A stretch of 64,000 bases of DNA from Leucoraja ocellata (lineage: Eukaryota): positions 248,001 through 312,000 of the forward strand of contig JAWMAR010000478.1 of NCBI GenBank assembly GCA_036785375.1, in the 5' to 3' direction. Positions 2,501-58,057 of the stretch are shown here, piece after piece; within the stretch, counting starts at the first letter, position 1, and each line of letters opens with the position of its first letter. The translations under genes were made by a program, and so were the position numbers. The notes below the pieces were generated by a model. That model made no database searches. It had not been told where the DNA came from and saw nothing but the letters and a program-made list of their open reading frames with translations.

Positions 2501-2808
2501 CTCCTCTTCCCTCCCCCGTCTCTCCTCCCCCCGTTGCCCATTCCCCTCCCCCGTCTCCCCCCGTCTCCCTCCCATCTCCCGTTCCCCCGTCTCCCCTTCC
2601 CCCCGTCTCCCCCCTCAGTCTCCCCTTCCCCCCCCGTCTCCTCTTCCCCCCCATCTCCCCTTCCCCCCCGTCTCACCTCCCCCCCCCGTCTCCCGTCCCC
2701 CCCCCCGTCTCCCCTCCTCCCCCCCGTCTCCCCTCCTCCCCCCCGTCTCCCCATCCCCCCCGTTTATCCTCCCCCCCGTCTCCCCTTTCCCCCACCGTCT
2801 CCCCCACC
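2490..2808 (+). repeat. C-rich (CCCCGTCT)-type low-complexity tract
   Basis: Seen directly. Confidence 0.9.
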
Positions 2809-3007
2809 ATCCTCATCTTTGGACAACCTGTGCATGGGGGAGAGGGTAGGGCTGAAGATGTCCTGGTTGGGTTGCTCCTGGGCCTGGCCAAGCTGGCCAG
2901 CCTCGAGTCACTGGGTCAGGCAGAAGAGGGCTCTGCCCGAGCCAGCTGCCTGCTCCTTTTCCGGGGTTACGTCCGTGCCTGGGTGGTGTTAGAGAGGGAC
3001 TACGCAC

Positions 3008-5064
3008 CAAAGATCCTATAGCAAAGCAAGATAGACCACTCCTGCTAAATACAATGGGCTGACGTGTAGTACGCAACGGAACGGAACGTGGGCCTTTTTT
3101 TCATCCATTTCCGTAACCGGACCCGACCCGACCCGCAGTGTAATCAACGCTGCGGAGGAACAGTTTGTGTTAATATATTAAAATTCTGAAAATGAGAAGA
3201 AGTTTTTTACCAACTAACTTTTATTTTTACGAGGATGTTTCCGTAACCGGCTTCCGTCTTCGCACTATTATACTATGGGATCTGTGGTGCGGAGACGGAA
3301 GCCGGTTATGGGAATGGGGCCTTAAATTACCCATGAATCTGCCCATGACCATACTATGTCAAAGGAGTTGGAAGAATTGAGTGAAATCCAGGTTAGCCGG
3401 GAAGTGGTGTTGGGTAAATTGAATGGATTAAAGGCCGATAAATCCCCAGGGCCAGATAGGTTGCATCCCAGAGTACTTAAGGAAGTAGCTCCAGAAATAG
3501 TGGATGCATTAGTAATAATCTTTCAAAACTCTTTTGATTCTGGAGTAGTTCCTGAGGATTGGCAGGTAGCAAACGCAACTCCACTTTTTAAGAAGGGAGG
3601 GAGAGAGAAAACGGGGAATTACAGACCAGTTAGTCTAACATCGGTAGTGGGGAAACTGCTAGGGTCAGTTATTAAAGATGGGATAGCAGCACATTTGGAA
3701 AGTGGTGAAATCATTGGACAAAGTCAGCATGGATTTACGAAAGGTAAATCATGTCTGACGAATCTTATAGAATTTTTCTAGGATGTAACTAGTAGCGTGG
3801 ATAGGGGAGAACCAGTGGATGTGGTGTATCTGGACTTCCAGAAGGCTTTCGACAAGGTCCCACATAAGAGATTCGTATACAAACTTAAAGCACACGGCAT
3901 TGGGGGTTCAGTATTGATCTTGATAGAGAACTGGCTGGCAAACAGGAAGCAAAGAGTAGGAGTAAACAGGTCCTTTTCGCAATGGCAGGCAGTGACTAGT
4001 GGGGTACCGTAAGGCTCAGTGCTGGGACACCAGCTATTTACAATATATATTAATGATCTGGATGAGGGAATTGAAGGCAATATCTCCAAGTTTGCGGATG
4101 ACACTAAGCTGGGGGGCAGTGTTAGCTGTGAGGAGGATGCTAGGAGACTGTAAGGTGACTTGAATAGGCTGGGTGAGTGGGCAAATGTTTGGCAGATGCA
4201 GTATAATGTGGATACATGTGAGGTTATCCATTTAGGTGGCAAAAACAAGAAAGCAGACTATTATCTCAATGGTGGCCGACTAGGAAAAGGGGAGATACAG
4301 CGAGACCTGTGTGTCATGGTACACCAGTCATTGAAAGTAGGCATGCAGGTGCAGCAGGCAGTGAAGAAAGCGAATGATATGTTAGCTTTCATAGCAAAAG
4401 GATTTGAGTATAGGAGCAGGGAGGTTCTACTGCAGTTGTACAGGGTCTTGGTGAGACCACACCTGGAGTATTGCGTACAGTTTTGGTCTCCAAATCTGAG
4501 GAAGGACATTATTGCCATAGAGGGAGTGCAGAGAAGGTTCACCAGACTAATTCCTGGGATGTCAGGACTGTCTTATGAAGAAAGACTGGATAGACTTGGT
4601 TTATACTCTTTCGAATTTAGGAGATTGAGAGGGGATCTTACAGAAACCTACAAAATTCTTAAGAGGTTGGACAGGCTAGATGCAGGAAGATTGCTCCCGA
4701 TGTTGGGGAAGTCCAGGACAAGGGGTCACAGCTTAAGGATAAGGGGGAAATCCTTTAAAACCGAGATGAGAAGAACTTTTTTCACACAGAGAGTGGTGAA
4801 TCTCTGGAACTCTCTGCCACGAAGGGTAGTTGAGGCCAGTTCATTGGCTATATTTAAGAGGGAGTTAGATGTGGCCCTTGTGGCTAAGGGGATCAGTGGG
4901 TATGGAGAGAAGGCAGGAACGGGATACTGAGTTGGATGATCAGCCATGATCATATTGAATGGCGGTGCAGGCTCGAAGGGCCGAATGGCCTACTCCTGCA
5001 CCTAATTTCTATGTTTCTATGTCTTTAGGTCGAGTGGACGATCTTGCTCGCGGTTGGATCTTTG
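3008..5064. mobile_element. Non-autonomous DNA transposon (MITE, about 395 bp) with a nested CR1
   Basis: About 33-bp TIRs CAAAGATCCTATAGC..GCAAGAT..CCACTC; 8-bp TSD CTACGCAC/CTACACAC. Confidence 0.8.
3361..5023 (+). mobile_element. 5'-truncated CR1 LINE with in-frame stops
   Basis: KSPGPD, NYRPVSLTS, FADD motifs and the CR1 3' UTR and tail; absent from the paralogous site near 60070. Confidence 0.93.
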
Positions 5065-6265
5065 CTACACACTGTCCACGGGCAACCTGGGGGATTTGCC
5101 GCTCCGTTGGGCACCGCGGGGGGTGGAATGCATCCTTGACAAGGATTGTAACATAGTTGTATAGTCGTTTATTTAGTATATTTGTTGGTCTTGTATTATG
5201 GGGGTGGGATCTGGTTTGTTTCATTTCATTTTCCAAATCCTCTGCAGAAAACATGTAATGACATAAAAATAGTATCAGGATTAATCTTGCACCTGCTCCA
5301 CTATTAGATGACCATGACTAATTAGATTTAGTTTAGTGTAGTTTAGAGACACAGCGCGGAAACAGGACCTTTGGCCCATCGAGTCAGCGCCGACCAGCGA
5401 TCCCCGCACACTACACACACCCAGTCAAGTCAAGTCAAGTCACTTTTATTTCTATAGTACATTTAAAAAACATCTCTCGTTGACCAAAGTGCTTTACATT
5501 GGTGGAGGTACTAACGTTATACAACAGTGGTTCATAGATTAAGTACATACATAAATACATACATATAGCCCTCCCTCAGAGGACGACAAGAAAGGCTTGA
5601 GAGTAAAGATGAGTTTTAACTCGACTTAAAAGAGTCGATGGAGGGGGCAGTTCTGATGGGAAGGGGGATGCTGTTCCACAGTCACGGAGCTGCAACCGCA
5701 AAGGCACGGTGGCCCCTGAGCTTATGCCTAGACCGCAGGATGTTCAGTAACCCCAAGTCTGCCGATCTGTGGGACCTGGAGGTGGTGTGGTGGGTAAGCA
5801 GGGACAATGTACATTTACAGCAAGCCAATCAACCTACAAACCAGCCCATCTGTGGGGTGTGGGAGGAAACCGAAGATCCCGGAGAAAACCCACGCAGTTC
5901 ACGGGGAGGACGTATAAACTCCGCACAGACAGCACCTGTAGTCAGGATCGAACCCGGGTCTCTGGCGCTGTGAGGCAGCAACTCTACCGCTGCGCCACTG
6001 TGCCGCCCTTTGTCAGATTTCCAGCGTCTGCATTTCATTATTATTATTACTCACCAATGCCACACAGAGAGCTGCTTGCTATGAAACTTGTTATAGAACA
6101 TGGTGCTACAAGAGCAAGAGCTTCAGAATAGCATTAGCAACAATCCCACAGGATTCTCAAAATATATATTTAATACCTACGAGTGGATTTTGTAACTGCA
6201 GGTAAAGACTGTTTAACAGACTATCATTTGATAGAAGCAATTATTGTCAATGTTAATAGTTACCC

Positions 6266-8890
6266 CAATAAAATCGCTGAAAAATGGTAAGACACCGGGA
6301 CCAGATGGTTTTAATAATTAATTTTATAAAAAATTTCAAGAGATAATGACCCCTTATTTATTTAATTTATACTCCCATGCTTTTAAAGAAAATAAATTAC
6401 CTGAAACACTAACAGAATCAATTATTACGCTTATTGCAAAAAAAAGATAAAGATTTAGAAGATCCGGGCTCGTACAGAGCTATATCACTTTTAAATACAG
6501 ATCAGAAAATTTTAGCAAAGATTTTAGCAAGAAGATTAAGCAAATATATTAGTAAATTGATAAACCCTGATCAAACGGGGTTTATGCCTAAAAGATACTC
6601 ATTTAATAATCTGAGACGCCTGTTTAATATAATGTACTTCCATAAAGTAGAGGAAGAAGATATATCAATTATTTCTTTGGATGCAGAGAAAGCATTTGAT
6701 CAGGTAGAGTGGCAATACTTATATAAAGTACTACAAAAATTTAATATGGGAATTTTATAACATGGGTAAAATTATTATATGATAAACCGATGGCAAGAAT
6801 TTTAACCAATAACATGTTATCTCAAAAATTTCAACTATCAAGGGGTAATAGGCAGGGATGTGCACTATCACCCCTGCTATTTGCCCTTATGATAGAACCC
6901 CTGGCTGAAAGTATAAGAATTCATCCGAATATTCAGGGCTATAATACCAGGGATGCATAGAATAAAATCTCATTATATGCAGACGATATACTTTTATACA
7001 TTACAAAGTCACAAACAAGCATACCAAATTTATTAAACTTAATAGAGGAATTTGGGTCTTTTTCTGGATATAGAATAAACTGGAACAAAAGTGAGATCAT
7101 GACATTAAAACCTCAAGAACCTACACACTTATTGAAGTTCCCCTTTAAAATCGCAACAGAAAAATTTAAATATTTGGGTATTCAGATTACTAGAAAATAT
7201 AAAGCATTATTCAACGCTAATTTCATACCTTTATTAAATAAACTTAATACGCTGATTAAATTTTGGAAAACACTTCCCTTATCATTATTAGGTAGAATAA
7301 ATGCAATAAAAATGATCTTCCTACCACAATTACTATATCTATTTCAGTCTATACCGGTATATATACCAAAATATTTTTAAAAAAAAATTAGACTCTAACA
7401 TTACAAATTCTATTTGGGACTATAGATCACATAGAATCACAAAAAACACTTATGTAAACCAAAAGAGGTCGGGGGACTTTCACTTCCGAAATTCACTTCC
7501 GAATTTTATGTATTATTACTGGGCCGTGCATATTAAGAATATGATTTATTGGTTGGATAGTTCTACCCAACAGACAGAATGGATAAAAATGGAGAAGGAG
7601 GATTGCCATCCTTGTAATATAGGAACGATCCTCTTTTCCCCCAAAAAACTGAATAACACAATATATAAGAAGAACCCAATTATATATGGTACAATAAGAA
7701 TTTGGAAACAAATAAAATTATCTTTGAAATTAAGAAATCTATCACTGTTAATGCCAATAGCAAATAACCCTTTATTTAAACTATCTCTTATTGATAAGAC
7801 ATATAACCAATGGGAAAGACTCGGAATTAGAAGGATCAGGGATATGTACGAAATGGGAAACCTACTATCATTCCAACAACTACAATTAAAATTTAAATTG
7901 AAAAACAACCAATATTTTAAATATCTTCAGATTTGCGACTTTGTGAAAAAATATATACAAGGATATCAAAAAGTAACTCCTGACTTATTGGAAGAAGCAA
8001 TGAATATTGAAGCTGACTCACAAAAATGAATATCATATTTATATAATAGTATTCTAAATATAGACCTACCATCGACAGAGGTACTTAGAGAAGAGTGGGA
8101 ACGGGATCTAATGATAAAAATTTCTAAGGTTAAATGGGAAAAATACCTGATATATATTCACAAATGTTCAATTAATGTAAGACATAATCTAATTCAATTT
8201 AAAATTGTACATAGATTATATTATTCAAAAACAAGATTGAACAAATTTTACCCAAATATATCCGCCACTTGTGATAAATGTCTAGCCCAAAAGGCAACTA
8301 TAACACACTCCTTAGTTTCCTGCATAAAACTTTATAGATTTTGGAATGATATTTTTGAAATATTTACAAAATTATTCAAGACAAGAATGGAACCTAATAC
8401 TGAAATGATTATATTTGGTGTAATGGAAGATGGGAATAAATTGAACACATCTCAAAATCTATTCCTTAACTATGGTTTAATAATAGCAAAAAAATGAATA
8501 CTTAAATTTTGCAAGTGTACATCAATACCAACGCTTAAAATGTGGATTGCAAGTATGTTGGACACCGCTCATTTTGAGGAAATGCGATTCCTCCTAATGG
8601 ATAAATCAGACCAATTCATAACGAGTTGGTCTCCATTCGTTGTTTTTTTGGAATCATATGGTGCAACACAATTGTAAAAAATAACTGTTTCAGGACTGGA
8701 CGAGGGTTGGTCAAGATTATAAATAATGATCTCCTTTTCTTTTTTATTTTCTTTTCTTTTCTCTATTTTCTCTCTCAACTTTCTTCATTTACTCGTTTTC
8801 ATTCTTCACACGCTATATATTTCACATCTTTCTATCCTTTACTATCTAACTTCTTTTTCTTATTCTATTCTTAAAAAAAAAAAAAAAAAA
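6266..8890 (+). mobile_element. 5'-truncated L1 LINE (ORF2 RT to C-terminus), AT-rich, degenerate
   Basis: YRAISLLNTD, LDAEKAFD, RQGCALSP, LYADD, CDKC..H..C; poly(A) at about 8873-8890; imperfect 13-bp TSD 6253-6265/8891-8903. Confidence 0.92.
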
Positions 8891-9149
8891 TCAATATTTA
8901 CCCGCGGAACAGTCTGGGTTCTAAAGAAACAGAGGCTTTTTTAAAGAGATACAGCGGGGAAACAGGCTCTTCAGCCCACCAAGTCCGCACCGACCATCGC
9001 ACATCCGTTCACACACTAGTTCTATGTTATCCCACTATTTAATCTACAGAGGGTTAATTAATCTATGAAACCCAAGGTAGTTAAGGCTGGTGCAGCGCTT
9101 TCTCCCCATCGCCTCTCCCTCCTCACCACCCCTCCCTCCATCCTCCCAC

Positions 9150-9341
9150 CTACCACTTCCGCTGCTTGGACTGGAACCAGAGCTCCGCGTATTCCACCCC
9201 CTCGCCACTGTGCCCGGTGGCTCCGCTGCTCAGCACCTCCTGCAGGTTGGCGTACACGACTGCTTGCTCTTCCCCCTCTCCCGATTCCCCTCCTTCTTTC
9301 CGCTCCACTGGGGCCGGCCCGTTCTCTCCACTCCCCGCGCT
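9150..9341 (-). CDS. Paralogous Siglec-like terminal ITIM exon (VVYANL, VEYAEL)
   Basis: Reverse complement of 57364-57543 with an in-frame 12-nt addition (ERKE); intact acceptor and TAG. Confidence 0.85.
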   Translation of the reverse strand, partial: SAGSGENGPAPVERKEGGESGEGEEQAVVYANLQEVLSSGATGHSGEGVEYAELWFQSKQRKW

Positions 9342-10627
9342 CTGGAAGGAAAGGGAAGCAGACGGGCAGTTGTGGGTTTAGTACAGAGCAGTGTGGCCCG
9401 GCATTTAATACCATCAGTGAGAAGGTTCACAACTCCTGTACTCCCACAGACCCAGGTTCAGCCATGTTGTTGATGTTCTCCTCTCACACACTCTCGCTCT
9501 CCTTCTCTCTCCGCCTCTCTCACTTTCTCTCCCTCTCCCTCTCCCTCTCACTTGCAGTTTCACACTTTCTCTCTCCCCCTTTCTCCCTCTCCTCTTTCTC
9601 TTACTCGCTCACACTCAGGCACTGTGTCTCTCACACTCGCAGTTTCACCCACTCTCTCTCTCTCTCTCTCTCGCCCCGTCTCCCCCTCTCTCCAACTTTC
9701 TCTCTCTCTCTCACACCCACTCTCACACTCACACTCTCACATAGTTAGATAAATCAATATTCATACCCCAGGTTGCTAAATACTTTAATTCCCCTTCCCA
9801 CACTGACCTTTCTGTCCTCGGTCGCCTCCATTGACAGAGTGAGGCTAAACACAAATTGGAGGACCAGCATCACATATTCCGTTTGGGCAGCTTACAGCCC
9901 AGTGATATGAACATTGATTTCCCTCACTTGAGGTAGCCCTGTATTCCCTCTCTCTCCATCCCTCGCCCACCCAAGTTGCACCAGCTTCTCGTTTTCACCC
10001 AACAAACCACTAACAGTGGCCTGTTTCCTTTATCATCGTTACTTTGTTTACATCTATTTTTCATTCATTGTTCTTTATCTCTCTCTACATCATCATCTAT
10101 ATAGAGTCATACATCGTGGAAACAGGCCCTTCTGCCCAACTTGCCCACACCGGCCAACATGGCCCAGCTATACTGGTCCCACCTGCCTGCGTTTGGTCCA
10201 TGTACCTTTCTGTTTCTTAAACGTTGGGATAGTCCCAGCCTCAACTACCTCCTCCAGCAGCTCGTTCCATACACGCACCACCCTTTGTGTCAAAAAGTTA
10301 CCCCTCAGATTTTTTCCCCTTCACCTTGAACCTATGTCCTCTGGTCCTCGATTCCCCTACTCTGGGCAAGAGACTGTGCATGTACCCAATCTATTCCTCT
10401 CATGATTTTATACACCTCTATAAGATCACCCCTCATCCCCCTGCACTCCAAGGAATAGAGTCCCAGCCTCCTCAACCTCTCCCTGTGGCTCAGGCCCCTC
10501 GAGTCTCGACCGAAACGTCACCTGTTCCTTCTCTCCAGAGATTCTGCCTGTTCCACTGAGTTACTCCAGCTTTTTGTACCCACTTTTGTATCATCTGTAG
10601 TTGAGATTAAATACAAAGTTCCACTAC

Positions 10628-10694
10628 CTGATTGGTGGCAGATTGTGGGCAGTAGATCACATTGGTGTCTTGGTTTCCTGAAGCATCTTCCCTC
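10628..10694 (-). CDS. Paralogous Siglec-like cytoplasmic exon (REDASGNQDTNVIYCPQSATNQ)
   Basis: Inverted copy of 55968-56034 with both splice sites conserved. Confidence 0.7.
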
Positions 10695-11617
10695 CTGCAG
10701 CAACAGAAGATCACACCAAGTTTACAGCACATCAGCAAAGTCCAAGTACAAAGTTGCAGTTGTATTAGACGTTGGTCATAAAGTCGTGAAGTCATTAATG
10801 ATAGGAGCAGAATGAAGTCATTCGGCCCATCAAGTCTACTCTGCCATTCAATCATGGCTGATCTAACTCTTCCTCCTAATCCCATTCTCCTGCCTTTTTC
10901 CCCATAACCCCTGACACCCGTACTGATCAATAACCTATCTATCTCTGCCTTAAACATATTGATTGGCTTGGCCTCCACAGCCTTCTGTGGCAAAGAATTA
11001 CACAGATTCACCACCCTCTGACTGAAGAAACACCTACTCTGCTTCCTAAAGGTAGTCCTTTAATTCTAAGGCTGTGGCCTCTGGTCCTAAACTCACTCTC
11101 CCACTAGTGGAAACATCCTCTCCACATCCAATCTATCCAGGCCATTCACTATTCATTAAATATCAATGAGGTCTCCCCTCATCCTTCTGAACTCCAGCTA
11201 GTACAGGCACAGGAAGTGTCAAACACTCATCATATGTTAATAATTCTCGTAAACATCCTTTGGACCCTCTCCCGAGCCAGCACATTCTCCCTCAGATATG
11301 GGGCCCAAAATGGCTCACAACAGTCTAAAGGCCATCTGTCGCTGGCTCTGATTTGTTCTGACTTTCTCAACCTTTCAGTATGAAGAAGGTCCCGACCCGA
11401 AATGTCACCTATTCCTGAATCCCCAGAGATGCTGCCTGACCTGCTGAGTTACTCCAGCACTTTGTACCTGTCCATGTTCTCCAGAGATGCTGCCTGACCC
11501 GCTGAGTTACTCCAGCATTTTGTGTCTCTGAACAGGAGTTAGCCTGGCAGAAGCAGTCATAAGCAGGTGACAAAGAGATGGATTTGGAAGTAAAAATGTG
11601 GATTTATTTAAACTTAC

Positions 11618-11731
11618 CGCAGTATATACTTGTAGATGATGAATCCAGCTAGCACAGCCATCAGTATTATCCCTGCTGTAAGCAAAACTGCCTTCCAAAT
11701 ACTGAAGCCTACCAAAACTGCCTACCAAATA
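11618..11731 (-). CDS. Transmembrane exon (IWKAVLLTAGIILMAVLAGFIIYKYILR) of the minus-strand Siglec-like tail
   Basis: About 20 hydrophobic residues followed by basic residues; phase-2 donor CG|GTAAGT splices in frame to 10694. The 5' boundary is ambiguous because of a local duplication. Confidence 0.75.
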
Positions 11732-45249: not shown

Positions 45250-45289
45250 ATGATCGGGAGATCGTTCTTCGTCCTCTCCCTTCTCCAAG
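45250..45289 (+). CDS. Siglec-like gene, signal-peptide exon (MIGRSFFVLSLLQ-); exon starts about 45208
   Basis: Acceptor ctttctcttccag at 45207, ATG at 45250, hydrophobic leader, phase-1 donor G|GTACC that joins in frame to the V-set exon. Confidence 0.75.
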
Positions 45290-45321
45290 GTACCATCAGC
45301 AGCAACTCAGAAGTGTTTACG

Positions 45322-45724
45322 GGGAGTGATGCACTGGGGGAGGGGCGGTGAGGAGGGAGTGATGCACTGGGGGAGGGGCGGTGAGGAGGGAGTGAAGAAT
45401 TGGGGGAGGGGCGGTGCGGAGGGAGTGATGCACTGTGGGAGGGGCGGTGAGGAGGGAGTGATGCACTGTGGGAGGGGCGGTGAGGAGGGAGTGATGCATT
45501 GGGGGAGGGGCGGTGAGGAGGGAGTGATGCATTGGGGGAGGGGCGGTGAGGAGGGAGTGATGCACTGTGGGAGGGGCGGTGAGGAGGGAGTGATGCATTG
45601 GGGGAGGGGCGGTGCGGAGGGAGTGATGCACTGTGGGAGGGGCGGTGCGGTGCGGAGGGAGTGATGCACTGGGGAGGGGCGGTGAGGAGGGAGTGATGCA
45701 CTGGGGGAGGGGCGGTGAGGAGGG
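45322..45724 (+). repeat. 33-bp G-rich minisatellite, about 12 copies
   Basis: Unit GGAGTGATGCACTGGGGGAGGGGCGGTGAGGAG; 11-aa periodicity in the overlapping ORFs. Confidence 0.95.
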
Positions 45725-45860
45725 AGACTCTACCACTACGCCATCATGCTGCTCTTCTACGCTCTGTTCACACCGGGTCCACAGCGCAGGATAAACGGTG
45801 TGGAAAGTCCAGTGAACTGACAGGGTGTTCACTGCTAAAGATTGTTCCTTCTCTCCTCAG

Positions 45861-46223
45861 CCGTGATGTCGGGACGCTCGAGAGCGTGGAATCCCAGAGC
45901 TGTGACAGCGCAGAACGGTTTGTGTGCACGGATTCCGTGTCACTACTCATACCCGTCGTATCTGAACAGTAAACCACGGACTGGAATCTGGTATAACAGT
46001 GGGTCGCACAAAGATCCTGTAGCCTTCCACTCCGGGGACCACAGTCTAGAATCAACAAAGTTTCAGCATCGGACCCGGCTGTCAGGAATCCTGATAGACA
46101 ACAACTGTTCCCTGGTTATAGACAACGTCACGCCGCAAGATGCAGGTCCTTATTTGTTCAGAGTTGATTTCGATGGGGGAAATCGTTACAGCTACCCCAC
46201 TGTAACACAGCTCACTGTTAGTG
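45861..46223 (+). CDS. Siglec-like V-set Ig exon (sialic-acid-binding domain)
   Basis: AG/GTAAGT boundaries in phase 1; Siglec motifs GLCARIPC, GIWY, NCSLVI and DAGPYLFR (F-strand Arg); open frame. Confidence 0.9.
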
Positions 46224-46913
46224 GTAAGTGCTCTGTTTAATTCACTCATTCACTCAACAGTTTCTCCCAGCTGTTATCGGGCAACTGAACCATCCTACCA
46301 CAACCAGAGAGCCGTGTTGAACTACTGTTGACCTCACTGGTGACCCATCGGACTATCCTTGATTGGACTTTGCTGGCTTTACCTTGCACTAACCGTTATT
46401 CCCTTATCAAGTCAAGTCAAGTCAAGTCAAGTTTTTTTTGTCACATACACATACGAGATGTGCAGTGAAATGAAAGTGGCAATGCTCGCGGAACAACAAA
46501 ACAACCAAACAAATTATAAACACAATCATAACACACATATTATTTTACTTAATAAATAATAGAAGGAAAAACGTTCTGTACAGTTAGTCCCTGGTGAGAA
46601 AGGCGTTTACAGTCCGAATTGCCTCTGGGAAGAAACTCCTTCACGTATCCATGCACTGCAAATGGCTCGATTGCAATCATGTGTAATCTTTCTGCTGAGG
46701 CAGATAGTAGTTCAGGACCGCTCCCTGGTTGTGGTAGGATGATTCAGTTGCCTGATAACAGCTGGGAAGAAACTGTCCCTGAATCTGGAGGTGTGCGTTT
46801 TCACACTTCTATACCTTGTAAAAACATCCTTGCTCGTGTGGGACTGGGATTTCGATGTGAACCGATGTATCCAGTGATATTTAACTAACAGTATTTGTTT
46901 CTCTGTGTGTTAG

Positions 46914-47207
46914 ATTTCACGGATAAACCCACGATATTTCCTGCTGAATTGGTGGCAGGAAAGCCTGTGAACATGACCTGCTCCTTCAGCACCACGTGTA
47001 ATGGAACGGCCCCCACCTTAACCTGGGTCACCCCCGCTGATGAACCACCGTCAGCCTCACACAGTGTAACTCAGCAGGGTGACACTCTGACATATACTTC
47101 TGTTCTGTCCCTGACCCCAGCGCTCAAACATCACGGACAAAGCCTCACCTGCAGAGTCACATACCCAACTGTGTCATCGGAGCAGACCCTCACACTGACT
47201 GTGGAAT
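46914..47207 (+). CDS. Siglec-like C2-set Ig exon (domain 2)
   Basis: tag|ATTTC ... GAAT|gtaagt; sequence DFTDKPTIFP..MTCSFSTTCNGTAPTLTW..HHGQSLTCRV with the extra Cys that forms the Siglec inter-domain disulfide. Confidence 0.9.
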
Positions 47208-48194
47208 GTAAGTACGGAGATCGTATATTGTGCAGGAACATCAATAATCTATTAGCAGCGCTGGTATATAAGGTCATAGACGATAGGTACAGAATTAGGC
47301 CATTCAGCCCATCAACTCTACTCTGCTATTCAATCATGGTTGATAAATCTCTCTCTCCTAACCCCTTTCTTCTGCCTTCTCCCCATATCCTCTGACACCC
47401 CTACTAATCAAATCAACACCAAAAGCTGGAGAAACGCAGCAGGACAGGCTGCATCTCTGGAGAGAAGGAATGGGTGACGTTTCAGATCGAGAACCTTCTT
47501 CAGACTGAAAGTTACAGGAAAGGGAAACGAGAGATATAGACGATGATGTGGAGAGATGTATGACCTACCTGATCTCCTGGTTGCTAAACACATTCATTCT
47601 CCTTCCCATTCCCACACTGAACTTTCTGTCCTCGGACACCACCATTGTCATAGTGAGGTTAAATGCAAATTGGAGGATCAGCATCTAATATTTTGCTTGG
47701 GCAGTTTACAGCCCAGTGGTATGTATATTGATTTCTCTAACTTCAGGCAGCCCCGGCATTCCCTCTCTCTCCATCCCTCCCCCACCCAAGTCTCATCAGC
47801 TTCTCGTTCTCACCCAACAAACAGCGAACAACGGCCTGTTCCCTTTATCATCGTTAACTTTTTGCATATCTTTCATTCTTTGTTCTATATGTCTCTACAC
47901 CATCGTCTTTCTCTCATTTCCCTAAATATAGAACTAGTGTGTGAATGTGTGATCGATGGTTGGCGCGGACTCCGTGGGCTGAAGGGCTTATTTCCGCAGT
48001 GTATCTCTACATTCTGCAGACTAAAGTCTTTTACAAGGATCACCGAAAGTGCCGTTTCGGCCCGAAACGTTGCCTATTTCCTTCGCTCCATAGATGCGGC
48101 TGCACCCGCTGAGTTTCTCCAGCTTTTCTGTGTAACCTTCGATTCTCCAGCATCTGCAGTTCCCTCTTAAATGCTGAATGTTATCTGTTTGCAG

Positions 48195-48906
48195 ACACCC
48201 CCCGAGGATCTCTCAATCACTTCCCCCGACAATGTGAACAATTCCTGGGTCAGTATAAAGGAAGGAAACTCTGCAGCGATCCTCTGCTCCCTCCAGAGTT
48301 TCCCAGCGTCTAACCTGATGTGGAGACATCGGTGTCACGCTGAACACAACACGTTCCAGCAACGAGCTGTGGATGGACATAGACATAGACGTAGAAAATA
48401 GGTGCAGGAGGTGGCGATTCGGCCCTTCGAGCCAGCAGCGCCATTCATTGTGGTCATGGCTGATCGTCCCCAATCAATAACCCGTGCCTGTCTTCTCCCC
48501 ATATCCCTTGATTCCACTGGTCCCTAGAGCTCTATCTAACTCTCTCTTAAATCCATCGAGTAACTTGGCCTCCACTGCTCTCTCTGGTAGGGAATTCCAC
48601 AAATTCACAACTCTCTGGGTGAAAAGGGTTTTTCTCACCTCAGCCTTAAATGGCTTCCCCTTTATTCTAAGACTATAGACCCTGGTTCTGGGAAACATTG
48701 GGAACATTCGTGCATCTACCTTGTCCAGTCCTTTTATAATTTTATATGTTTCAATAAGACATCCCCTCATCCTTCTAAACTTCAGTGAATACAAGCCTAT
48801 TCTTTACAATTCCCTCAGCTGACAGGGAAGGATGCTGGGGTCTATCAGTGTGTAGTGGAGAATGACCATGGGACAGCTGAGAGGGATGTGACCCTCATTG
48901 TAGAAT
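48195..48906 (+). pseudogene. Disabled C2-set Ig exon of the Siglec-like gene
   Basis: Paralog of exon 51445-51726 with an extra C in a C-run, a 2-nt deletion (cat c ggt vs cat ctc ggt), a CR1 fragment inserted at about 48378-48805, and the donor changed to TTGAGT. Confidence 0.85.
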
Positions 48907-48992
48907 TTGAGTAGACACACACTGTCATGTCTATGTAAAGGCAGATGGTTTATTGGCCCATGAGAGATGCTGGAATTCACTAACACTCTCAC

Positions 48993-49121
48993 NNNNNNNN
49001 NNNNNNNNNNNNNNNNNNNNNNNNNNNNNNNNNNNNNNNNNNNNNNNNNNNNNNNNNNNNNNNNNNNNNNNNNNNNNNNNNNNNNNNNNNNNNNNNNNNN
49101 NNNNNNNNNNNNNNNNNNNNN
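48993..49121. other. Assembly gap (129 N)
   Basis: Run of N flanked by CA/CT microsatellite. Confidence 1.
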
Positions 49122-49837
49122 NCACACGCTCCCTCTCTCTCACACACACACACACGCACTCATTCACTCAAACACATACAGACACACATCCTCAAGATCT
49201 CGGAGAAAACCCAGGCAGGTCACGGGGAGAACGTGCAAACTCCGTACAGAAAGGCACGGGTGGTCAGGATTGAACCCGGGTCTCTGGCGCTGTGAGGCAG
49301 GAGCTCTACCCACTGCGCCACCGTGCCGCCCACATCTACAGCCTTGTTTGTTCCCCACCTGTAAGTAACCTGTCTCACCTCTGCCTGACGTTGTTGGATT
49401 ATATTGGTCTTTCCACCCAGAAACCTTCAATGCCTCCCTCTATGTATCGTCACTCCTCACGTTGCTTAAACACAAAGTAGTGGAGCAACTCAGTGGGTCA
49501 GGCAGTGTCTTTAGAGTTTTTAGAGTCTTACAGCATGGTTACAGGTCCTTTGGCCCAACTTGCCCACACCGGCCAATGAGCCCCATCTACACGCATCCCA
49601 CCTGCCCTACTTCGGCCCATATCCCTCCAAACAAGTCCTATCCATGTTTGATGTCCATCAGTCTGAAGAAGGGTTTTGGCCCGAAACATTGCCTATTTCC
49701 TTCGCTCCATCGATGCTGCTCCACCCGCTCAGTTTCTCCAGCACTTTTGTCTACCTCCTATCCATGTTACCTGTCCAACTGTTTTTTAAACGTTGCAATG
49801 ATCCCAGCCTCAACTACCTCCTCCAGCAGCTCGTTCC

Positions 49838-51118
49838 TTATAAAAAGGACTGGACAAGCTAGATGCAGGAAAAATGTTCCCAATATTGGGCGAGTCCAGA
49901 ACCAGGGGCCACAGTCTTAGAATAAAGGGGAGGCCATTTAAGACTGAGGTGAGAAATAACTTTTTCACCCAGAGAGTTGTGAATTTGTGGAATTCCCTGC
50001 CACAGAGCGCAGTGGAGGCCAAATCATTGGATGGATTTAAGAGAGAGTTAGATAGAGTTCTAGGGGCTAGTGGAGTCAAGGGAAATGGGGAGAAGGCAGG
50101 CACGGGTTATTGATTGGGGACGATCAGCCGTGATCACAATGAATGGCGGTACTGGCTCGAAGGGCTGAAAGGCCTCCTCCTGCACCTAATTTCTATGTTT
50201 CTATGTAGAGAGATAAAGAACAATGAATGTAAGATCGGAGAGCAGGAGGCATCACAGAGGGGGAGCAGTGAGAGGGGGTGTGGCAGAACTGCAATGTTGT
50301 GAAAGATTGCAGCAGGAACTTGATCATTGGCCAGATGAGCTGATGAATGGTTAATTGAATTTAAATCAGAGATATGTGAGATGTTGCATTTTGGGACGTC
50401 TAACAAAAGCAGCACCAACACAGTTAATGGTAGGCCTGTGGGGAGTGTTGTAGAGCAGAGGGATCAAGGAGTGCAGGTGCAAGGTTCCTTGAAGATCAAG
50501 TCACAGGTGGTCAAAAAGCCTTTTGGCATACTGGCCTTCATCAGTCAGAGTATTGAGTATAGAAGTTGGGAGGCCATGTTGCAGTTGTATAAGACGTTGG
50601 TGAGGCCGCATTTAGAATATTGTGTTCAGTTCTGGGCACCATGTTACTGGAAAGATATTATCAAGCTTGAAAGGGTTCAGTGAAGATTTATGAGAATGTT
50701 GCCAAGGACTAGAGGGCCCGAGCTACAGGGAGAGGTTGTGCAGGCTGGGTCTCTATTGCTTGGAGCGCAGATGGATGTGGGGTGATCTTATAGTGAAAAG
50801 ATCATGAGGGGAAGAGATTGAGTGGATGCACAGAGTATCTTGCATAGAATAGGAGAATCGAGGACCAGAGGACATAGGTTCAAGGTGAAGGAGAAAAGAT
50901 TTAATAGGAACCTGAGGAACTTTTTACACAAAGGGTAGTTGGTGTATGGAACACGGTGCCAGAGGAGGTAGTTGAGGCAGGGTCTATCCCAACGTTTAAA
51001 AAACAGTTAGACAGGTACATGGATACAACAAATATGGAGGGTTATGGGCAGGTGGGACTAGTGTATCTGGGACATGTTGGCCGGTGTGGGCAAGTTGGGC
51101 TGAAGGGCCTGTTTCCAC
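49838..51118 (+). mobile_element. CR1 fragments (others at about 940-1345, 16875-17415, 42470-43480, 44585-45140, 51900-52500, 58925-59450)
   Basis: LVRPHLEYCVQFW and FFTQRVVNLWN motifs. Confidence 0.85.
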
Positions 51119-51315
51119 ACGATCACCCTTTGACTCTAACTCTCGTCAGAGAGAGGAGAATTTCTTCAAAGTAGACATATCTTGAGGAGATTTCACAGTG
51201 GAGCAGACGGAATGAGTAGGAAGGAACTGCAGATGCTGGTTTAAACCAAAGATAGATACAAAAAGATGGAGTAACTCAGCGGGTCAGGTAGCATCTCTGG
51301 AGAGTAGGAATGGGT

Positions 51316-51346
51316 GACGTTTCGGGTCGAGACCCTTCTTCAGACT
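51316..51346 (-). ncRNA. Minimal hammerhead-ribozyme motif of Penelope-derived ends (others at about 47475-47505 on -, about 49662-49690 on +)
   Basis: CTGAAGA-A-GGGTCTCGACCC-GAAA-CGTC: CUGANGA core, stem II, GAAA and GUC, as known for Penelope-like elements. Confidence 0.55.
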
Positions 51347-51444
51347 AGTTGCATTCGTACTTCATCTTTTCTCTCCGTACTGTCCTGGTTGGCGCGTTGA
51401 ATTCTGCCGTGTTAACTCGCGTTTAAACCTTCGTTTGTCTTTAG

Positions 51445-51726
51445 ATGCTCCACGAAATCCCTCAATCACTTCCCATGACGATGCGAACAGTTCCCGGGTG
51501 ATTGTAAAGGAAGGAAACTTTGCAGCGATCCTCTGCTCCGTTCAGAGTTTCCCAGCATCTAACCTGACGTGGGTACATCTCGGTGTCACTCTGAACACAA
51601 CATGTTCCAGCAACGAACTGTGGTTGGAGTTCCCTCAGCTGGCATGGCAGGATGCTGGGGTCTATCAGTGTGTGGCGGTGAATGAACACGGGACAGCAGA
51701 GAGGGATGTGACCCTCACTGTAGAAT
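51445..51726 (+). CDS. Siglec-like C2/I-set Ig exon (intact)
   Basis: ttag|ATGCT ... GAAT|gtgagt; YAPRNPSIT..AILCSVQSFPASNLTW..DAGVYQCVAVNEHG. Confidence 0.88.
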
Positions 51727-53184
51727 GTGAGTAGACACACACTAACACATCCCTCACAACGTCATAAATGATAGGGGCAGAATTAGAATGTTGAATGGTC
51801 AAATCTACTCCACCATTCAATCATGGCTGATCTATCTCTCCCTCCTAACCCCATTCTCCTGCCTTCTCATAGAGCCATAGAGCTATAGAGCCATTGATTC
51901 ATAGAGTGATACAGCGTGGGAACTGCTCAACTTGCTTTCAACAACCTACATGTCCCAGCTACATTAGTCCAACCTGCCCATGTTTGGCCCATATCCCTCC
52001 AAACTTGCCCTAACCATGTACTTGTCTGTTTCTTAAACGCTGGGATAGTCCCAGCCTCAGCGACCTCCTCTGGCAGCTCATTCCATACAACAACCAGCCT
52101 TTGTATGAAAAAGTCACCGCCCAGGTTCCGTTTAAATAATTTCCCCTTCACCTTGAACCTATGTCCTCTGGTCGTCGATTCACCTACTCTGGGCAATAGA
52201 CTTGGTGCATCTACCCGATCTATTCCTCTCATGATTATAAACACCTCTATAAGAGCACTCCTCATCCCCCTGCTCTCCAAGGAAGAGAGTCCTAGCCTGC
52301 TCAACCTTTCCCTATAGCTCAGGCCCTCTAGTCCTGGCCACATCCTCATGAATCTTCTCTGCACCCTTTCCTGCTTGACAACATACTTCCTATATTTCCT
52401 CTCTCCTCTTCTAAGATAAGGAAGTTTAGATAAAATTATTTGAAGCATTGTGTGCAGTTCTGGTCACCCCATTACAGGAAGGATGTGGTCAGGGTGCACA
52501 ACGCTGCCTAGTTTAGAGAGTATTAGCAATAAGGAGTTTCAAGGGGGGCACACAGTGGTTCAACGGTAGAGTTGCTGCCTCACAGCACCAGAGAGCCAGG
52601 TTGAATCCTCACTACGGGTGCTTGTCGGTACGGAGTTGGCAAGTTCATCCCATAACCTACGTGGGTTTTCTTCGGGTGCTCCGGTTTCCTCCCACACTCC
52701 AAAGATATACAGGTGGGCAGGTTAATTGGCTTGGTATATTTGTAAATTGTCCCTAGTGTGTGCAGGATAGTATATGTGTGGGGATCGCTGGCAGGCGTGG
52801 ACACGGTGGGCCGAAGGGCCTGTTTCCGCGCTGTATCTCTAAACTAAACTAAAGAAGAGGTTGGATAGACTTTCTCTGGAGTTCATGTTCACAAGTGATG
52901 GGAGCACAATAAGGCCTTTTGGCCCATCAAGTATACTCTGCCATTCGATCATGGCTGATCTATTTCTCCCTCCCCTGCCCCATTCCCCTGCCTTCACTCC
53001 ATAGCCTCTGACACCCGTACTAATGAAGAATCTATCTCTGCCTTAAATATAACCACTGACATGGCCTCCACTGCCGTCTGTGGCAAAGAATTCCACAGAT
53101 TCACCACCCATTGGAAGGCTGAGGGGAGACCTGATAGAAATATATAAAACTATGAGTTGCATTGAGAAGTCAGAATCTTTTTTA

Positions 53185-54090
53185 CATAGAAACATAGAAA
53201 TTAGGTGCAGGTGTAGGCCATTCGGCCCTTCGAGCCTGCACCGCCATTCAATATGATCATGGCTGATCATCCAACTCAGTATCCCGTACCTGCCTTCTCT
53301 CCATACCCTCTGATCCCCTTAGCCACAAGGGCCACATCTAACTCCCTCTTAAATATAGCCAATGAACTGGCCTCAACTACCCTGTGCGGCAGAGAGTTCC
53401 AGAGATTCACCACTCTCTGTGTGAAAAAAGTTCTTCTCATCTCGGTTTTAAAGGATTTCCCCCTTATCCTTAAGCTGTGACCCCTTGTCCTGGACTTCCC
53501 CAACATCGGGAGCAATCTTCCTGCATCTAGCCTGTCCAACCCCTTAAGAATTTTGTAAGTTTCTATAAGATCCCCTCTCAATCTCCTAAATTCTAGAGAG
53601 TATAAACCAAGTCTATCCAGTCTTTCTTCATAAGACAGTCCTGACATCCCAGGAATCAGTCTGGTGAACCTTCTCTGCACTCCCTCTATGGCAATAATGT
53701 CCTTCCTCAGATTTGGAGACCAAAATTGTACGCAATACTCCAGGTGTGGTCTCACCAAGACCCTGTACAACTGCAGTAGAACCTCCCTGCTCTTATACTC
53801 AAATCCTTTTGCTATGAAAGCTAACATACCATTCGCTTACTTCACTGCCTGCTGCACCTGCATGCCTACTTTCAATGACTGGTGTACCATGACACCCAGG
53901 TCTCGCTGCATCTCCCCTTTTCCTAGTCGGCCACCATTTAGATAATAGTCTGCTTTCCTGTTTTCGCCACCAAAATGGATAACCTCACATTTATCTACAT
54001 TATACTGCATCTGCCAAACATTTGCCCACTCACTCAGCCTATCCAAGTCACCTTGCAGTCTCCTAGCATCCTCCTCACAGCTAACACTGC
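53185..54090 (-). mobile_element. 5'-truncated CR1
   Basis: RT C-terminal ORF 53276-53827 and tail. Confidence 0.92.
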
Positions 54091-54179
54091 TAACATGGTG
54101 CAAATGTCAAGGTTGAGAGGGCAGAGCTGTAAGGTGAGAGGGGAAAATTGTAAAGGAGATGTGCGGGGCAACTTTTACA

Positions 54180-54782
54180 ATACGATACGACACAATAGAA
54201 CTTTATATATCCCAGGAGAGAACTAAATACACAAAATACACAAACACAAAATACTTTAAATATGAAATTAAAGTGACGAGTGGAAAGGCTTGGGGGCTGT
54301 GCAAAGATTACGTGGGAGGGGGGTGGTGGGGAGGCGAGTCAGTCTCAGTCTACACTACGACAGAAGGGGGAGGAGTTGTACAGTTTGATAGCCACAGGGA
54401 AGAAGGATCTCCTGTGGCGTTTTGTGCTGCATCTTGGTGGAACCAGTCTGTTGCTGAATGTGCTCCTCTGGTTGACCAATGTGTCACGGAGGGGTTGAGC
54501 CGTATTGTCCAGGATGCTCCACAGCTCCATCCTCCCCTCCTAGACCAACCTACTGTGAATCCAACTCCGCCCCCAGGATGGAGCCGGCCTTCCTGATGAG
54601 CTTGTTGATCCCATTGACGTCTGCAGCCTTCGCCCTGTTGCCCCGGCACACGGCAGTGAAGAAGATGGCACTGGCCACCACCGATTAGTAGAACATCTGC
54701 AGCTTCTTGCTGCAGATGTTGATGGAGCAGAGCCTTCTCAGAAAGCTCTGTCCCTTCTTGTACAGAGCCTCGGAGTTCTTGG
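54180..54782 (-). mobile_element. Rex/Babar 3' fragment (related pieces at about 60-352, 14660-14830, 44360-44580, 63510-64000)
   Basis: RRSFFPVAIKLYN here; LLPSGRRYRSL at the window end. Confidence 0.7.
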
Positions 54783-54880
54783 ATCAGTCCCGTTTACTGA
54801 AGATAGACACAAAATGCTGGAGCAGACAATGCTGGAGAAACTCAGCGGGTGAGGCAGCATCTATGGAGCGAAGGAAATAG

Positions 54881-55799
54881 ACACTAAGCTGGGGGGCAGT
54901 GTTAGCTGTGAGGAGGACTGCAAGGTGACTTGGATAGGCTGGGTGAGTGGGCAAACGTTTGCAGATGCAGTATAATGTGGATAAATGTGAGGTTATCCAT
55001 TTTGGTGGCAAAAACGGGAAAGCAGACTATTATCTAAATGGTCGCCGATTGGGAAAGGGGGAGATGCAGCGAGACCTGGGTGTCATGGTACACCAGTCAT
55101 TGAAGGTAGGCATGCAGGTGCAGCAGGCAGTAAAGAAAGCGAATGGTATGTTAGCTTTCATTGCAAAAGGATTTGAGTATAGGAGCAGGGAGGTTCTACT
55201 GCAGTTGTACAGGGTCTTGGTGAGACCACACATGGAGTATTGCGTACAGTTTTGGTCTCCAAATCTGAGGAAGGACATTATTGCCATAGAGGGAGTGCAG
55301 AGACGGATCACCAGATTGATTCATGGGATGTCAGGACTGTCTTATGAAGAAAGACTGGATAGACTTGGTTTATACTCTCTAGAATTTAGGAGATTGAGAG
55401 GGGATCTTATAGAAACTTACAAAATTCTTAAGGGGTTGGACAGGCTAGATGCAGGAAGATTGTTCCCGATGTTAGGGAAGTCCAGGACAAGGGGTCACAG
55501 CTTAAGGATAAGGGGGAAATCCTTTAAAACCGAGATGAGAAGAACTTTTTTCACACAGAGAGTGGTGAATCTCTGGAACTCTCTGCCACAGAGGGTAGTT
55601 GAGGCCTGTTCATTGGCTATATTTAAGAGGGAGTTAGATGTGGCCCTTGTGGCTAAGGGGATCAGGGGGTATGGAGAGAAGGCAGGTACGGGATACTGAG
55701 TTGGATGATCAGCCATGATCATATTGAATGGCGGTGCAGGCTCGAAGGGCCGAATGGCCTACTCCTGCACCTAATTTCTATTTTTCTATGTTTCTATGT
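54881..55799 (+). mobile_element. 5'-truncated CR1 at the inner edge of the right inverted arm
   Basis: ORF 54947-55699 and tail. Confidence 0.92.
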
Positions 55800-55967
55800 A
55801 TCAGCCATGATTGAATGGCAGAGTAGACTTGATGGGCCGAATGACTTAATTCTGCTACTATCATTAATAACCTCACGACTTTATGACCAACGTCTAATAC
55901 AACTGCAACTTTATACTTGTACTTTGCTGATGTGCTGTAAACTTGGTGTGACCTTCCTTTGCTGCAG

Positions 55968-56034
55968 GAGGGAAGATGCTTCAGGGAACCCAGACAACAA
56001 TGTGATCTACTGCCCACAATCTGCCACCAATCAG
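55968..56034 (+). CDS. Siglec-like cytoplasmic exon (R-REDASGNPDNNVIYCPQSATNQ)
   Basis: gctgcag|G ... CAG|gtagtg; starts in phase 2, matching the TM exon of the left paralog; ends in phase 0, matching the ITIM exon. Confidence 0.7.
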
Positions 56035-57363
56035 GTAGTGGAACTTTGTATTTAATCTCAACTACAGATGATACACACGTGGGTACAAAATGCTGGAGTA
56101 ACTCAGTGGAACAGGCAGAATCTCTGGAGAGAAGGAACAGGTGATGTTTCGGTCGAGACTCGAGGGGCCTGAGCTACAGAGAGAGGTTGAGGAGGCTGGG
56201 ACTCTATTCCTTGGAGCACAAGGGGATGAGGGGTGATCTTATAGATGGGTATAAAACCATGAGAGGAATAGATCAGGTAGATGCACAGAGACTCTTGCCC
56301 AGAGTAGGGGAATCGAGGACCAGAGGACATAGGTTCAAGGTGAAGGGGAAAAAAATCTGAGGGGTTACTTTTTCACACAAAGGGTGGTGCGTGTATGGAA
56401 CGAGTTGCTGGAGGAGGTAGTTGAGGCTGGGACTATCCCAACGTTTAAGAAACAGTTAGAAAGGTACATGGACAGGACAAGTTTGGAGGGATATGGACCA
56501 AGCGCAGGCAGGTGGGACTAGTGTAGCTGGGCCATGTTGGCCGGTGTTGGCAAGTTGGGCAGAAGGACCTGTTTCCACAATGGATGACTCTATATAGATG
56601 ATGATGTAGAGAGAGATAAAGAACAATGAATGAAAGATAGATGTAAACAAAGTAACGATGATAAAGGAAACAGGCCACTGTTAGTGGTTTGTTGGGTGAA
56701 AACGAGAAGCTTTGTGCGACTTGGGTGGGGGAGGGATGGAGAGAGAGGGAATACAGGGCTACCTCAAGTGAGGGAAATCAATGTTCATATCACTGGGCTG
56801 TAAGCTGCCCAAACGGAATATGTGATGCTGGCCCTCCAATTTGTGTTTAGCCTCACTCTGTCAATGGAGGCGACCGAGGACAGAAAGGTCAGTGTGGGAA
56901 GGGGAATTAAAGTATTTAGCAACCGGGGGTATGAATATTGATTTATCTAACTATGTGAGAGTGTGTGAGTGTGAGAGTGGGTGTGAGAGAGTGGGTGTGA
57001 GTGTGAGACAAAGTTTGAGAAAGAGGGAGACGAGGCGAGAGAGGGAGAGAGATAGTGGGTGAAACTACGAGTGTGAGAGACACAGTGCCTGAGTGTGAGC
57101 GAGTGAGAGAAAGAGTAGAGGGAGAAAGGGGGAGAGAGAAAGTGTGAAACTGCAAGTGAGAGGGAGAGGGAGAGAGAGAAAGTGAGAGAGGGGGAGAGAG
57201 AAGAAGAGTGAGGGTGTGCGAGAGGAGAACATAAACAACATGGCTGAACCTGGGTCTGTGGGAGTACACGAGTTGTGAACCTTCTCACTGATGGTATTAA
57301 ATGCCGGGCCACACTGCTCTGTACTAAACCGACAACTGCCCGTCTGCTTCACTTTCCTTCCAG

Positions 57364-57543
57364 AGCGCGGGGAGTGGAGAGAACGGGTCGGCCCCAGTAG
57401 GAGGGGAATCAGGAGAGGGGGAAGAGCAAGCGGTCGTGTACGCCAACATGCGGGAGGTGCTGAGCAGCGGAGACACCAGGCACAGTGACGAGGGGGTGGA
57501 ATACGCGGAGCTCTGGTTCCAGTCCAAGCAGGGGAAGGGGTAG
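57364..57543 (+). CDS. Siglec-like terminal exon with tandem ITIM-like motifs (VVYANM, VEYAEL)
   Basis: Acceptor ctttccttccag; 59 codons then TAG; two V-x-Y-x-x-(L/M) motifs. Missed by the ORF track. Confidence 0.85.
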   Translation, partial: SAGSGENGSAPVGGESGEGEEQAVVYANMREVLSSGDTRHSDEGVEYAELWFQSKQGKG

Positions 57544-58057
57544 GTGGGAGGATGGAGGGAGGGGTGGTGAGGAGGGAGAGGCGATGGGGAGAGAGCGCTG
57601 CACCAGCTTTAACTACCTTGGGTTTCATAGATTAATTAACCCTCTGTAGATGAAATAGTGGGATAACATAGAACTAGTGTGTGAACACATGATCGATGGT
57701 CGGTGCGGACTTGGTGGGCTGAAGGGCCTGTTTCCCCGCTGTATCTCTTTAGAAAAGCCTTTGTTTCTTTAGAACCCAGACTGTTCCGCGGGTAACTATG
57801 AACATTGAGAATAATTGCTTCTATCAAATGATAATCTGTTACACACAGTCTTTACCTGCAGTTACAAAATCCACTCATAGCTATTAAATGAAGACCTTTA
57901 TTTTTTGAGAATCCTGTGGGAATTTTGCTAATGCTATTCTGAAGCTCTTGCTTTTGTAGCACCATGTTCTATAACAAGTTTCATAGCAAGCAGCTCTCTG
58001 TGTGGCATTGGTGAGTAATAATAATAATGAAATGCAGACGCTGGAAATCTGACAAAG

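Follow-up and report, generated by a model that had tools for sequence, protein, structure and literature searches.

The window analysed here comprises 64 kb of repeat-rich DNA of the skate Leucoraja ocellata (contig JAWMAR010000478.1, positions 248,001 to 312,000 of the forward strand), and all coordinates below are positions within this window. Its right-hand part holds a Siglec-like gene copy composed of leader, V-set and C2-type immunoglobulin (Ig) exons followed by two cytoplasmic exons, with no transmembrane (TM) exon between them, and its left-hand part holds an inverted duplicate of the 3' portion of the same cassette. The gene is a member of a large, multi-copy skate expansion of Siglec-like genes, and in the reading that we prefer, to which we give about an even chance, the TM exon was lost through a real deletion and the copy is a young pseudogene, prone to nonsense-mediated decay (NMD).

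Organization of the right-hand gene copy

The leader, V, C2a and C2b exons and both cytoplasmic exons (cyt1 and cyt2) are bounded by AG and GT ends, and the splicing of leader, V, C2a and C2b produces a frame of 326 open codons, in agreement with the initial annotation of the locus, which had described the leader, the V exon (with its arginine intact) and two C2 exons as open and well spliced. That annotation had also described a gene copy devoid of a TM exon, with what appeared to be only repeats between C2b and cyt1, and here too it stands: the sequence of 51727-55967 consists of repeats or repeat-like segments, and no homologue of the TM exon was found in this interval by either tblastn or blastn. 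Four features had been overlooked, i.e., a broken third C2 exon, an assembly gap of 130 N, a frameshift in the left-hand TM exon and the loss of a tryptophan from the A strand of the V domain.

Relatives were compared in a family sample of 140 proteins (P0001-P0140) from sharks, skates and rays. This sample includes the CD33-like/Siglec-like models of Amblyraja radiata XP_032870526.1 (P0006), XP_032870542.1 (P0133), XP_032870550.1 (P0007) and XP_032870579.1 (P0140). The lesion of the broken C2 exon is common to some of these models (the frameshift in P0007 and P0133, the insertion in P0007), so that it must be old, and this exon must be skipped. The gap separates V and C2a from C2b and, as it lies between the broken C2 exon and C2b, the connection of V/C2a with C2b depends on scaffolding.

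An alternative leader at 45746-45776 was rejected as the main one, given that its donor is weak and that it matches a single model (P0008), whereas most relatives match the leader at 45250-45289. An AG acceptor is found upstream of the ATG of the leader exon, at about 45208, and a stretch resembling an exon, which has a GT donor as well as a good acceptor, is located some 4 kb upstream of the gene, on the same strand (41295-41370); this stretch and the upstream part of the leader exon are likely to be 5' untranslated (UTR) exons of the gene. Sequence with 72-77% similarity to the minisatellite of intron 1 (45341-45642) also occurs in inverted orientation approximately 20 kb upstream, at 24688-24829.

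Table 1. Features of the gene copy, of its inverted duplicate and of the repeat junction, in window coordinates (ITIM, immunoreceptor tyrosine-based inhibitory motif; LINE, long interspersed nuclear element; KD19, Kyte-Doolittle hydropathy over 19 residues).
Feature	Position	Strand	Remarks
Leader (signal peptide) exon	45250..45289	+	Phase-1 donor; N-termini near-identical in skate relatives
33-bp minisatellite, 12.2 copies	45322..45726		Intron 1
V-set Siglec-type exon	45861..46223	+	F-strand Arg and G-strand Tyr kept; A-strand Trp replaced by Ser
C2a exon (C2-set)	46914..47207	+	97% identity to A. radiata P0006; no private substitutions
Broken C2 exon	48195..48906	+	Frameshift; LINE insertion at 48377-48803; GT donor lost
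Assembly gap, 130 N	48993..49122		Inside the gene
C2b exon (last Ig, I-set)	51445..51726	+	Open; 6 private substitutions, one of them introducing an additional Cys
Intron of nested repeats	51727..55967		No TM exon and no homologue of the membrane-proximal Ig exon
Young 5'-truncated LINE (presumed CR1 type)	54880..55799	+	Non-matching flanks; likely point of deletion or mis-join
Open frame from cryptic CAG acceptor at LINE 3' end to cyt1	55805..55967	+	In frame with the tail from a phase-1 donor; KD19 1.72
cyt1, first cytoplasmic exon	55968..56034	+	Begins in phase 2; joined to C2b it is out of frame and yields TGA
cyt2, tail exon	57364..57543	+	Distal ITIM-like motif intact, proximal ITIM degenerate; 12 nt deleted; 3' UTR in the predicted message
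Left arm of the inverted duplication	2798..10862	-	Matches 55800-60630; 3.0-5.6% diverged; arm-specific repeat insertions
Left-arm cyt2	9150..9341	-	Two ITIM-type motifs
Left-arm cyt1	10628..10694	-	
Left-arm TM exon	11618..11731	-	17-nt insertion at 5' end; frameshift from the strong acceptor

Absence of the transmembrane exon and origin of the stop codon

Scans of the intron between C2b and cyt1 for a hidden TM exon, based on Kyte-Doolittle (KD) hydropathy and on AG sites, recovered only repeat-derived stretches, and the membrane-proximal Ig exon was absent throughout the window in tblastn searches with all 55 proteins and two additional domain queries. The copy lacks the type I transmembrane segment of a Siglec, as no TM exon lies between C2b and cyt1, and it also lacks an in-frame cytoplasmic tail with ITIMs, since the tail exons stand behind a stop and the proximal motif is degenerate.

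This stop, a TGA, is formed by the join of C2b and cyt1 directly after the last Ig residue and 65 nt upstream of the cyt1/cyt2 junction, both as previously described. The Ig exons end in phase 1 with a T, and cyt1, whose first bases are the same in the TM-bearing left arm, begins with GA in phase 2; a join of C2a to cyt1 would yield the same TGA. Given this shared mismatch of phases, any loss or skipping of the TM exon will produce a TGA without the need for selection, and the codon is an accident of phase rather than a tuned feature. If cyt1 is skipped, a stop follows immediately, and read-through into the intron adds two residues.

The homology to the left arm begins at 55800, directly after the 3' end of the young LINE, in accordance with the earlier claim that it stops at a CR1 element (55799). 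The repeat labels used here (CR1, SINE for short interspersed nuclear element, and Rex) are presumptive, and the open reading frame (ORF) of the junction LINE had no match in Pfam. On its 5' side this LINE abuts a SINE-like element truncated near position 68-71, relative to an intact copy of 106 nt, and the 3' flank is the beginning of the duplicated arm, which is unrelated to the 5' flank. A nearby LINE (53184-54090), by contrast, was inserted between pieces of a single older element, as read from the sequence. The non-matching flanks of the junction LINE thus point to either a deletion or a mis-join.

All of the nine proteins with this type of tail (out of 140) have a TM segment before the tail, and in three of the nine there is, in addition, a membrane-proximal Ig domain, of which the window has no counterpart. 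Deletions linked to LINEs are known to arise both through the insertion itself and through recombination between copies, and a real genomic deletion at the young LINE probably removed the TM exon by either of these two routes, presumably together with the membrane-proximal Ig exon. C2b would then be spliced to cyt1, with a stop directly after the last Ig domain, and NMD would cut down the resulting message, leaving a young pseudogene.

In the same intron, the young LINE ends 53184-54090 and 54896-55791 are inverted with respect to each other (95.7% identity over 907 bp, around 0.8 kb apart), a pair that could anneal in the pre-mRNA and affect either splicing or A-to-I editing.

Siglec identity and conservation of the Ig domains

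The V domain matches the Pfam V-set profile (E 5.8e-11), with MAG, sialoadhesin and CD33 as its best sequence matches in the PDB, and its predicted structure (predicted local distance difference test, pLDDT, 88) has 1qfo as the best fold match, with a template-modelling score (TM-score) of 0.86. It is followed by domains that match C2-set_2 (E 1.7e-10) and I-set (E 8.8e-11), i.e., the C2-after-V order of the Siglecs. The F-strand arginine is intact and aligned with that of sialoadhesin and MAG (an Arg is present in 65 of 67 homologous domains), and an aromatic residue is retained in the G strand, where a tyrosine is aligned with Trp106 of sialoadhesin.

The tryptophan of the A strand, which is found in 72 of the 73 relatives scored (among 131 proteins) and in the sister protein P0005, has been replaced by a serine that maps to sialoadhesin Trp2 through an ungapped extension of the alignment, leaving this position with no aromatic residue. 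According to two reports (PMC13086771, PMC10243309), binding depends critically on Trp2 of sialoadhesin, together with Arg97 and Trp106. A private tryptophan stands three residues after the serine, and the V model is of low confidence at residues 1-5. Three cysteines were counted in V and three in C2a, as expected from an odd pattern that we take to be the Siglec feature of a V-C2 interdomain disulfide, and three in C2b, one of which is private. The C2b domain carries six private substitutions, one of them adding this odd cysteine, and as many were found in only one of 22 related domains.

Lacking a TM segment, an in-frame tail and the aromatic residue of the A strand, the copy is not a canonical Siglec. 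If the protein is made, it would act in a manner similar to that of a soluble Siglec ectodomain, probably with weakened binding.

The inverted left arm

Ig exons of the left arm were not found on its strand anywhere in the window, so that the arm presents a TM exon and a tail only. In the TM exon, 25 nt precede the Phe codon, where P0006 and P0140, judged by their frame, imply 8. Splicing at the strong acceptor leads to a stop within 7 codons, and the one acceptor that keeps the frame, at 11708, is weak. In one contig of the sequencing run X1 (depth 592), 17 letters are missing from 11711-11731. The peptide encoded is identical to the TM segment of P0006 (30/30).

The divergence between the arms is alike in exons and introns and, given this divergence and the repeat insertions peculiar to each arm, the pair is not a duplicated haplotype. 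Between the right and left tails, 10 nonsynonymous and 4 synonymous changes have accumulated, at the same rate as in the introns; besides its deletion, the right tail has a Met in the proximal ITIM where the left arm and the relatives have a Leu, and the left tail is the closer of the two to the relatives. This divergence of the tails fits both a pseudogene and a secreted fate. The earlier proposal that the parts of one receptor are split over two inverted copies is valid as an inventory of parts, although the left TM exon is frameshifted and the reciprocal junction of an inversion was not found.

Upstream of the left TM exon there is a tandem duplication (12062-13304 / 15019-17415, 92% identity), whose second copy carries a young LINE (15573-16726) with both flanks intact. 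An AT-rich LINE (6265-8894, Pfam RVT_1) was inserted in the left arm only.

Sequencing reads over the cassette

Reads of the runs X1, X24, X15 and X16, which come from relatives or other alleles, were mapped at likeness 88 to the left TM-cyt1 stretch (10540-11800). The mapping was swamped by the repeats of the intron. The summed depths are not copy numbers and thus give no TM-to-tail ratio. The run X15, considered by guess to be RNA, had depths of 3.84, 10.9 and 1.64 on the TM bins and of 21.7 and 5.82 on the cyt1 bins, with 0 in two unique intron bins. In X24 (raw RNA, of which approximately 1/100 was read), the depth was 1.5 on the 3' bin of the TM exon, 1.2-2.1 on cyt1 and 2.3 on an intron bin, and X16, likewise RNA by guess, covered cyt1 only (7.25 and 4.66). 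No joint of TM or C2 with cyt1 occurred among those listed for this stretch. The reads are compatible with TM-bearing transcripts and, in X16, with a TM-less transcript, and are proof of neither. No RNA run matching the V-C2a stretch was present among the runs found (the best run contains 0.60 of its 154 words), which is not evidence on expression.

The X1 contigs on the unique TM-cyt1 parts (10666-10778 and 11519-11618) reached depths of 464-975, compared with 18-42 for several others, a hint that the cassette is highly repeated in the X1 organism.

Related genes and known soluble receptors

The closest proteins are those of skates (Amblyraja, Leucoraja and Rhinoraja), followed by those of rays and sharks, and among the proteins listed no match of the V domain exceeds 89%. 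The elasmobranch expansion of Siglec-like genes is large, with at least three types of TM and tail, tandem V repeats and many truncated models. In the family sample, 40 of the 140 proteins are TM-less (no 19-residue window above KD 1.6), and the C-terminus of 11 of these coincides with the edge of the last Ig exon; these are automated models, partial in some cases. This skate expansion seems little described: no paper dedicated to the skate or shark Siglec family was found in a literature search with most subscription journals outside its coverage, and a whale shark paper mentions Siglecs once.

The gene copy shares with the A. radiata models its leader, its V clade (P0006, P0007 and P0133; 99/97 support), a C2a domain of 96-97% identity (P0006 and P0007), the broken C2 exon (P0007 and P0133), and the type of TM and tail (P0006, P0133 and P0140). 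In the latter three models, by contrast, the TM exon is in frame and, in two cases, follows a membrane-proximal Ig domain, and P0006, P0007 and P0133 keep the A-strand Trp, P0140 having no V domain. A layout of leader, V and two C2 domains, with a stop at or two residues past the last Ig exon, is also seen in the 'Siglec-8' models of Rhinoraja longicauda (XP_078287860.1 / XP_078287859.1; P0044, P0132), but these belong to another V clade and are automated models, in which secretion is a prediction only.

The V-set fold and the arginine site are common to the skate copy and to sialoadhesin (Siglec-1), MAG (Siglec-4) and CD33, which are type I membrane proteins, the copy differing from them in its lack of a TM segment and of the aromatic equivalent of Trp2. 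In other Ig families, the human and rodent PSGs are established secreted products. LILRA3 is reported to be a secreted member of an expanded Ig-receptor family, and secreted CEACAMs arise by a stop mutation or a donor mutation (PMC2832619). The ligands of LILRA3 and of the CEACAM/PSG proteins are of other classes, and LILRA3, like the PSGs, is an established product, whereas the product of the skate locus is a candidate. Human soluble Siglec-14 is a TM-less ectodomain produced by the splicing of an intact gene and shown in blood (PMC8615218); the skate copy shares with it a TM-less ectodomain, predicted in this case, but lacks the TM exon already at the level of the locus.

Pseudogene or secreted protein

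The limit within which a stop escapes NMD is placed at 50-55 nt from the last junction in human data (PMC12668785). With its 65 nt, the stop of the skate copy lies beyond this zone, and NMD of the spliced message is likely. Neither AATAAA nor ATTAAA, the canonical signals that would permit polyadenylation within the intron and an escape from NMD, is present in 51727-53000. The copy has the disabling lesions of an unprocessed pseudogene, with its TM exon absent, its tail out of frame and an internal C2 exon broken, and decay is general in this cassette, as seen in the shared broken C2 exon, the frameshifted left TM exon and the divergence of the tails. The loss of the Trp, the private changes of C2b, the stop beyond the escape zone and the untuned TGA all lean toward a pseudogene. 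The initial annotation had offered either a secreted decoy or an NMD-targeted pseudogene; of the two, the pseudogene is favoured by the Trp, the C2b changes and the position of the stop, and the secreted decoy is the weaker proposal, even though the exons are open and the Arg is kept.

A number of observations weigh against a pseudogene. None of the four coding exons is damaged, nor are their splice sites or the ATG. At the neutral rates of divergence of the two arms (per site, 3.9% for substitutions and 0.31% for frameshifting indels, measured over 3253 sites), the probability of no disabling lesion in the 978-nt frame, the splice sites and the ATG is 0.084 for one lineage and a loss as old as the duplication, a value that rises if the loss of the TM exon is younger and that concerns a finding chosen for being open. 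The stop exceeds the NMD rule by just 10 nt, and a tail drifting neutrally would also be expected if the gene were functional and secreted. The private-change signal of C2b is weak, given that there is no close orthologue (best identity 86%) and that one of the changes also occurs in the partial model P0010. In C2a, there are no private changes, and the deviations at columns conserved in at least 90% of the homologues (one in V, none in C2a and two in C2b) show no excess over the paralogues. In addition, the sister of the V domain, P0005 (100/99 support), derives from a 994-nt contig in which leader, V and C2a are contiguous and the Trp is intact, an arrangement suggesting that the lineage is transcribed and spliced in some skate.

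These observations bear on the alternative of a functional secreted Siglec with three (or two) Ig domains, a soluble decoy or opsonin for sialylated glycans, with its ectodomain under selection and its tail exons serving as 3' UTR. We regard this as unlikely, although it would account for the open exons, with their low probability under neutrality, and for the intact signal peptide, arginine and G-strand aromatic, and the modelled fold resembles that of sialoadhesin. It also finds parallels in the L-V-C2-C2-stop layout of the automated R. longicauda model XP_078287860.1 (329 aa), in the 11 sampled proteins that terminate with the last Ig exon, in the precedents of Siglec-14 and the CEACAMs, and in the run X16, which covers cyt1 and none of the TM bins. 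However, the TGA is explained without selection and the stop is within the range of NMD, the A-strand Trp has been lost, and C2b has its private changes and odd cysteine; the R. longicauda model, which belongs to another V clade, itself lacks a C2 cysteine, and the TM-less models are automated predictions, some of them partial. The pattern of X16 may reflect low coverage or a divergent TM exon, with no joint shown, and X15 and X24 cover both TM and cyt1. An artefact of assembly, in which different copies of the cassette were joined at the junction LINE or across the gap and the true gene has its TM exon, is quite unlikely. In its favour, the break falls on a 0.9-kb repeat with copies of 94-97% identity nearby, the family is multi-copy, an N gap lies inside the gene, and no sequencing run contains more than the fraction of V-C2a words given above. 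On the other hand, the arms are diverged and have repeat insertions of their own, set against four other copies, the junction LINE shows 23-36 differences in 900 bases without any clear step from one end to the other, its 5' junction resembles an ordinary truncation point, and the gap is upstream of C2b, away from the site expected for the TM exon.

It is very unlikely that an inversion split one complete P0006-like receptor, with Ig exons that formerly faced the left TM exon and tail and now face a tail-only duplicate. The left TM peptide and C2a both have P0006 as their best match (30/30 and 97%), and the left tail is the nearer to the relatives, but besides the missing reciprocal junction, no inverted young LINE with swapped flanks was found among the 10 copies examined, and the missing half of the cut SINE stands alone nowhere in the window (14 matches examined). 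Hardly credible is a rescue by exonization, in which C2b would be spliced to a cryptic acceptor at 55805, derived from the pyrimidine-rich 3' end of the LINE, so that the frame is kept and the TM segment is replaced by a weakly hydrophobic stretch that contains Lys. This CAG has 12 pyrimidines in the 17 upstream positions, equal to the real acceptor of cyt1, and the frame is open into cyt1. However, its KD19 is only 1.72, compared with 2.74 in the true TM segment, a hydrophobic stretch follows 20 of 303 intron AG sites and is thus common, and the left arm has the same frame open within an intron; the route at 55805 is likely due to chance.

If the copy is a pseudogene, it represents the ordinary birth-and-death turnover of a cluster of immune receptors and advises caution in taking the TM-less skate Siglec models as secreted. 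If it is secreted, a cartilaginous fish would possess a soluble Siglec encoded at the gene level, of simple origin and parallel to LILRA3 and the secreted CEACAMs. That skates have repeatedly built secreted Siglecs through the deletion of TM exons in duplicated cassettes, with stops from mismatched phases and ITIM exons turned into the 3' UTR of soluble decoys or opsonins, is a broader scenario that we consider unlikely.

Other repeats in the window

A degenerate non-LTR (long terminal repeat) retroelement, which we take to be R2/CRE-like, occupies 28105-31520, with a reverse transcriptase (RT) domain (Pfam RVT_1) at 29317-29862. ORFs at 26740-27978 and 31927-32238 (minus strand), two of which had no match in a Pfam scan, presumably represent remnants of hAT/zinc-finger transposases. 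Finally, three young LINE pieces are arranged in tandem at 33583-36050, the last of them being a 251-bp repeat with 98% identity, and a merged RT-like ORF of 455 aa is found within these pieces, at 34162-35529.

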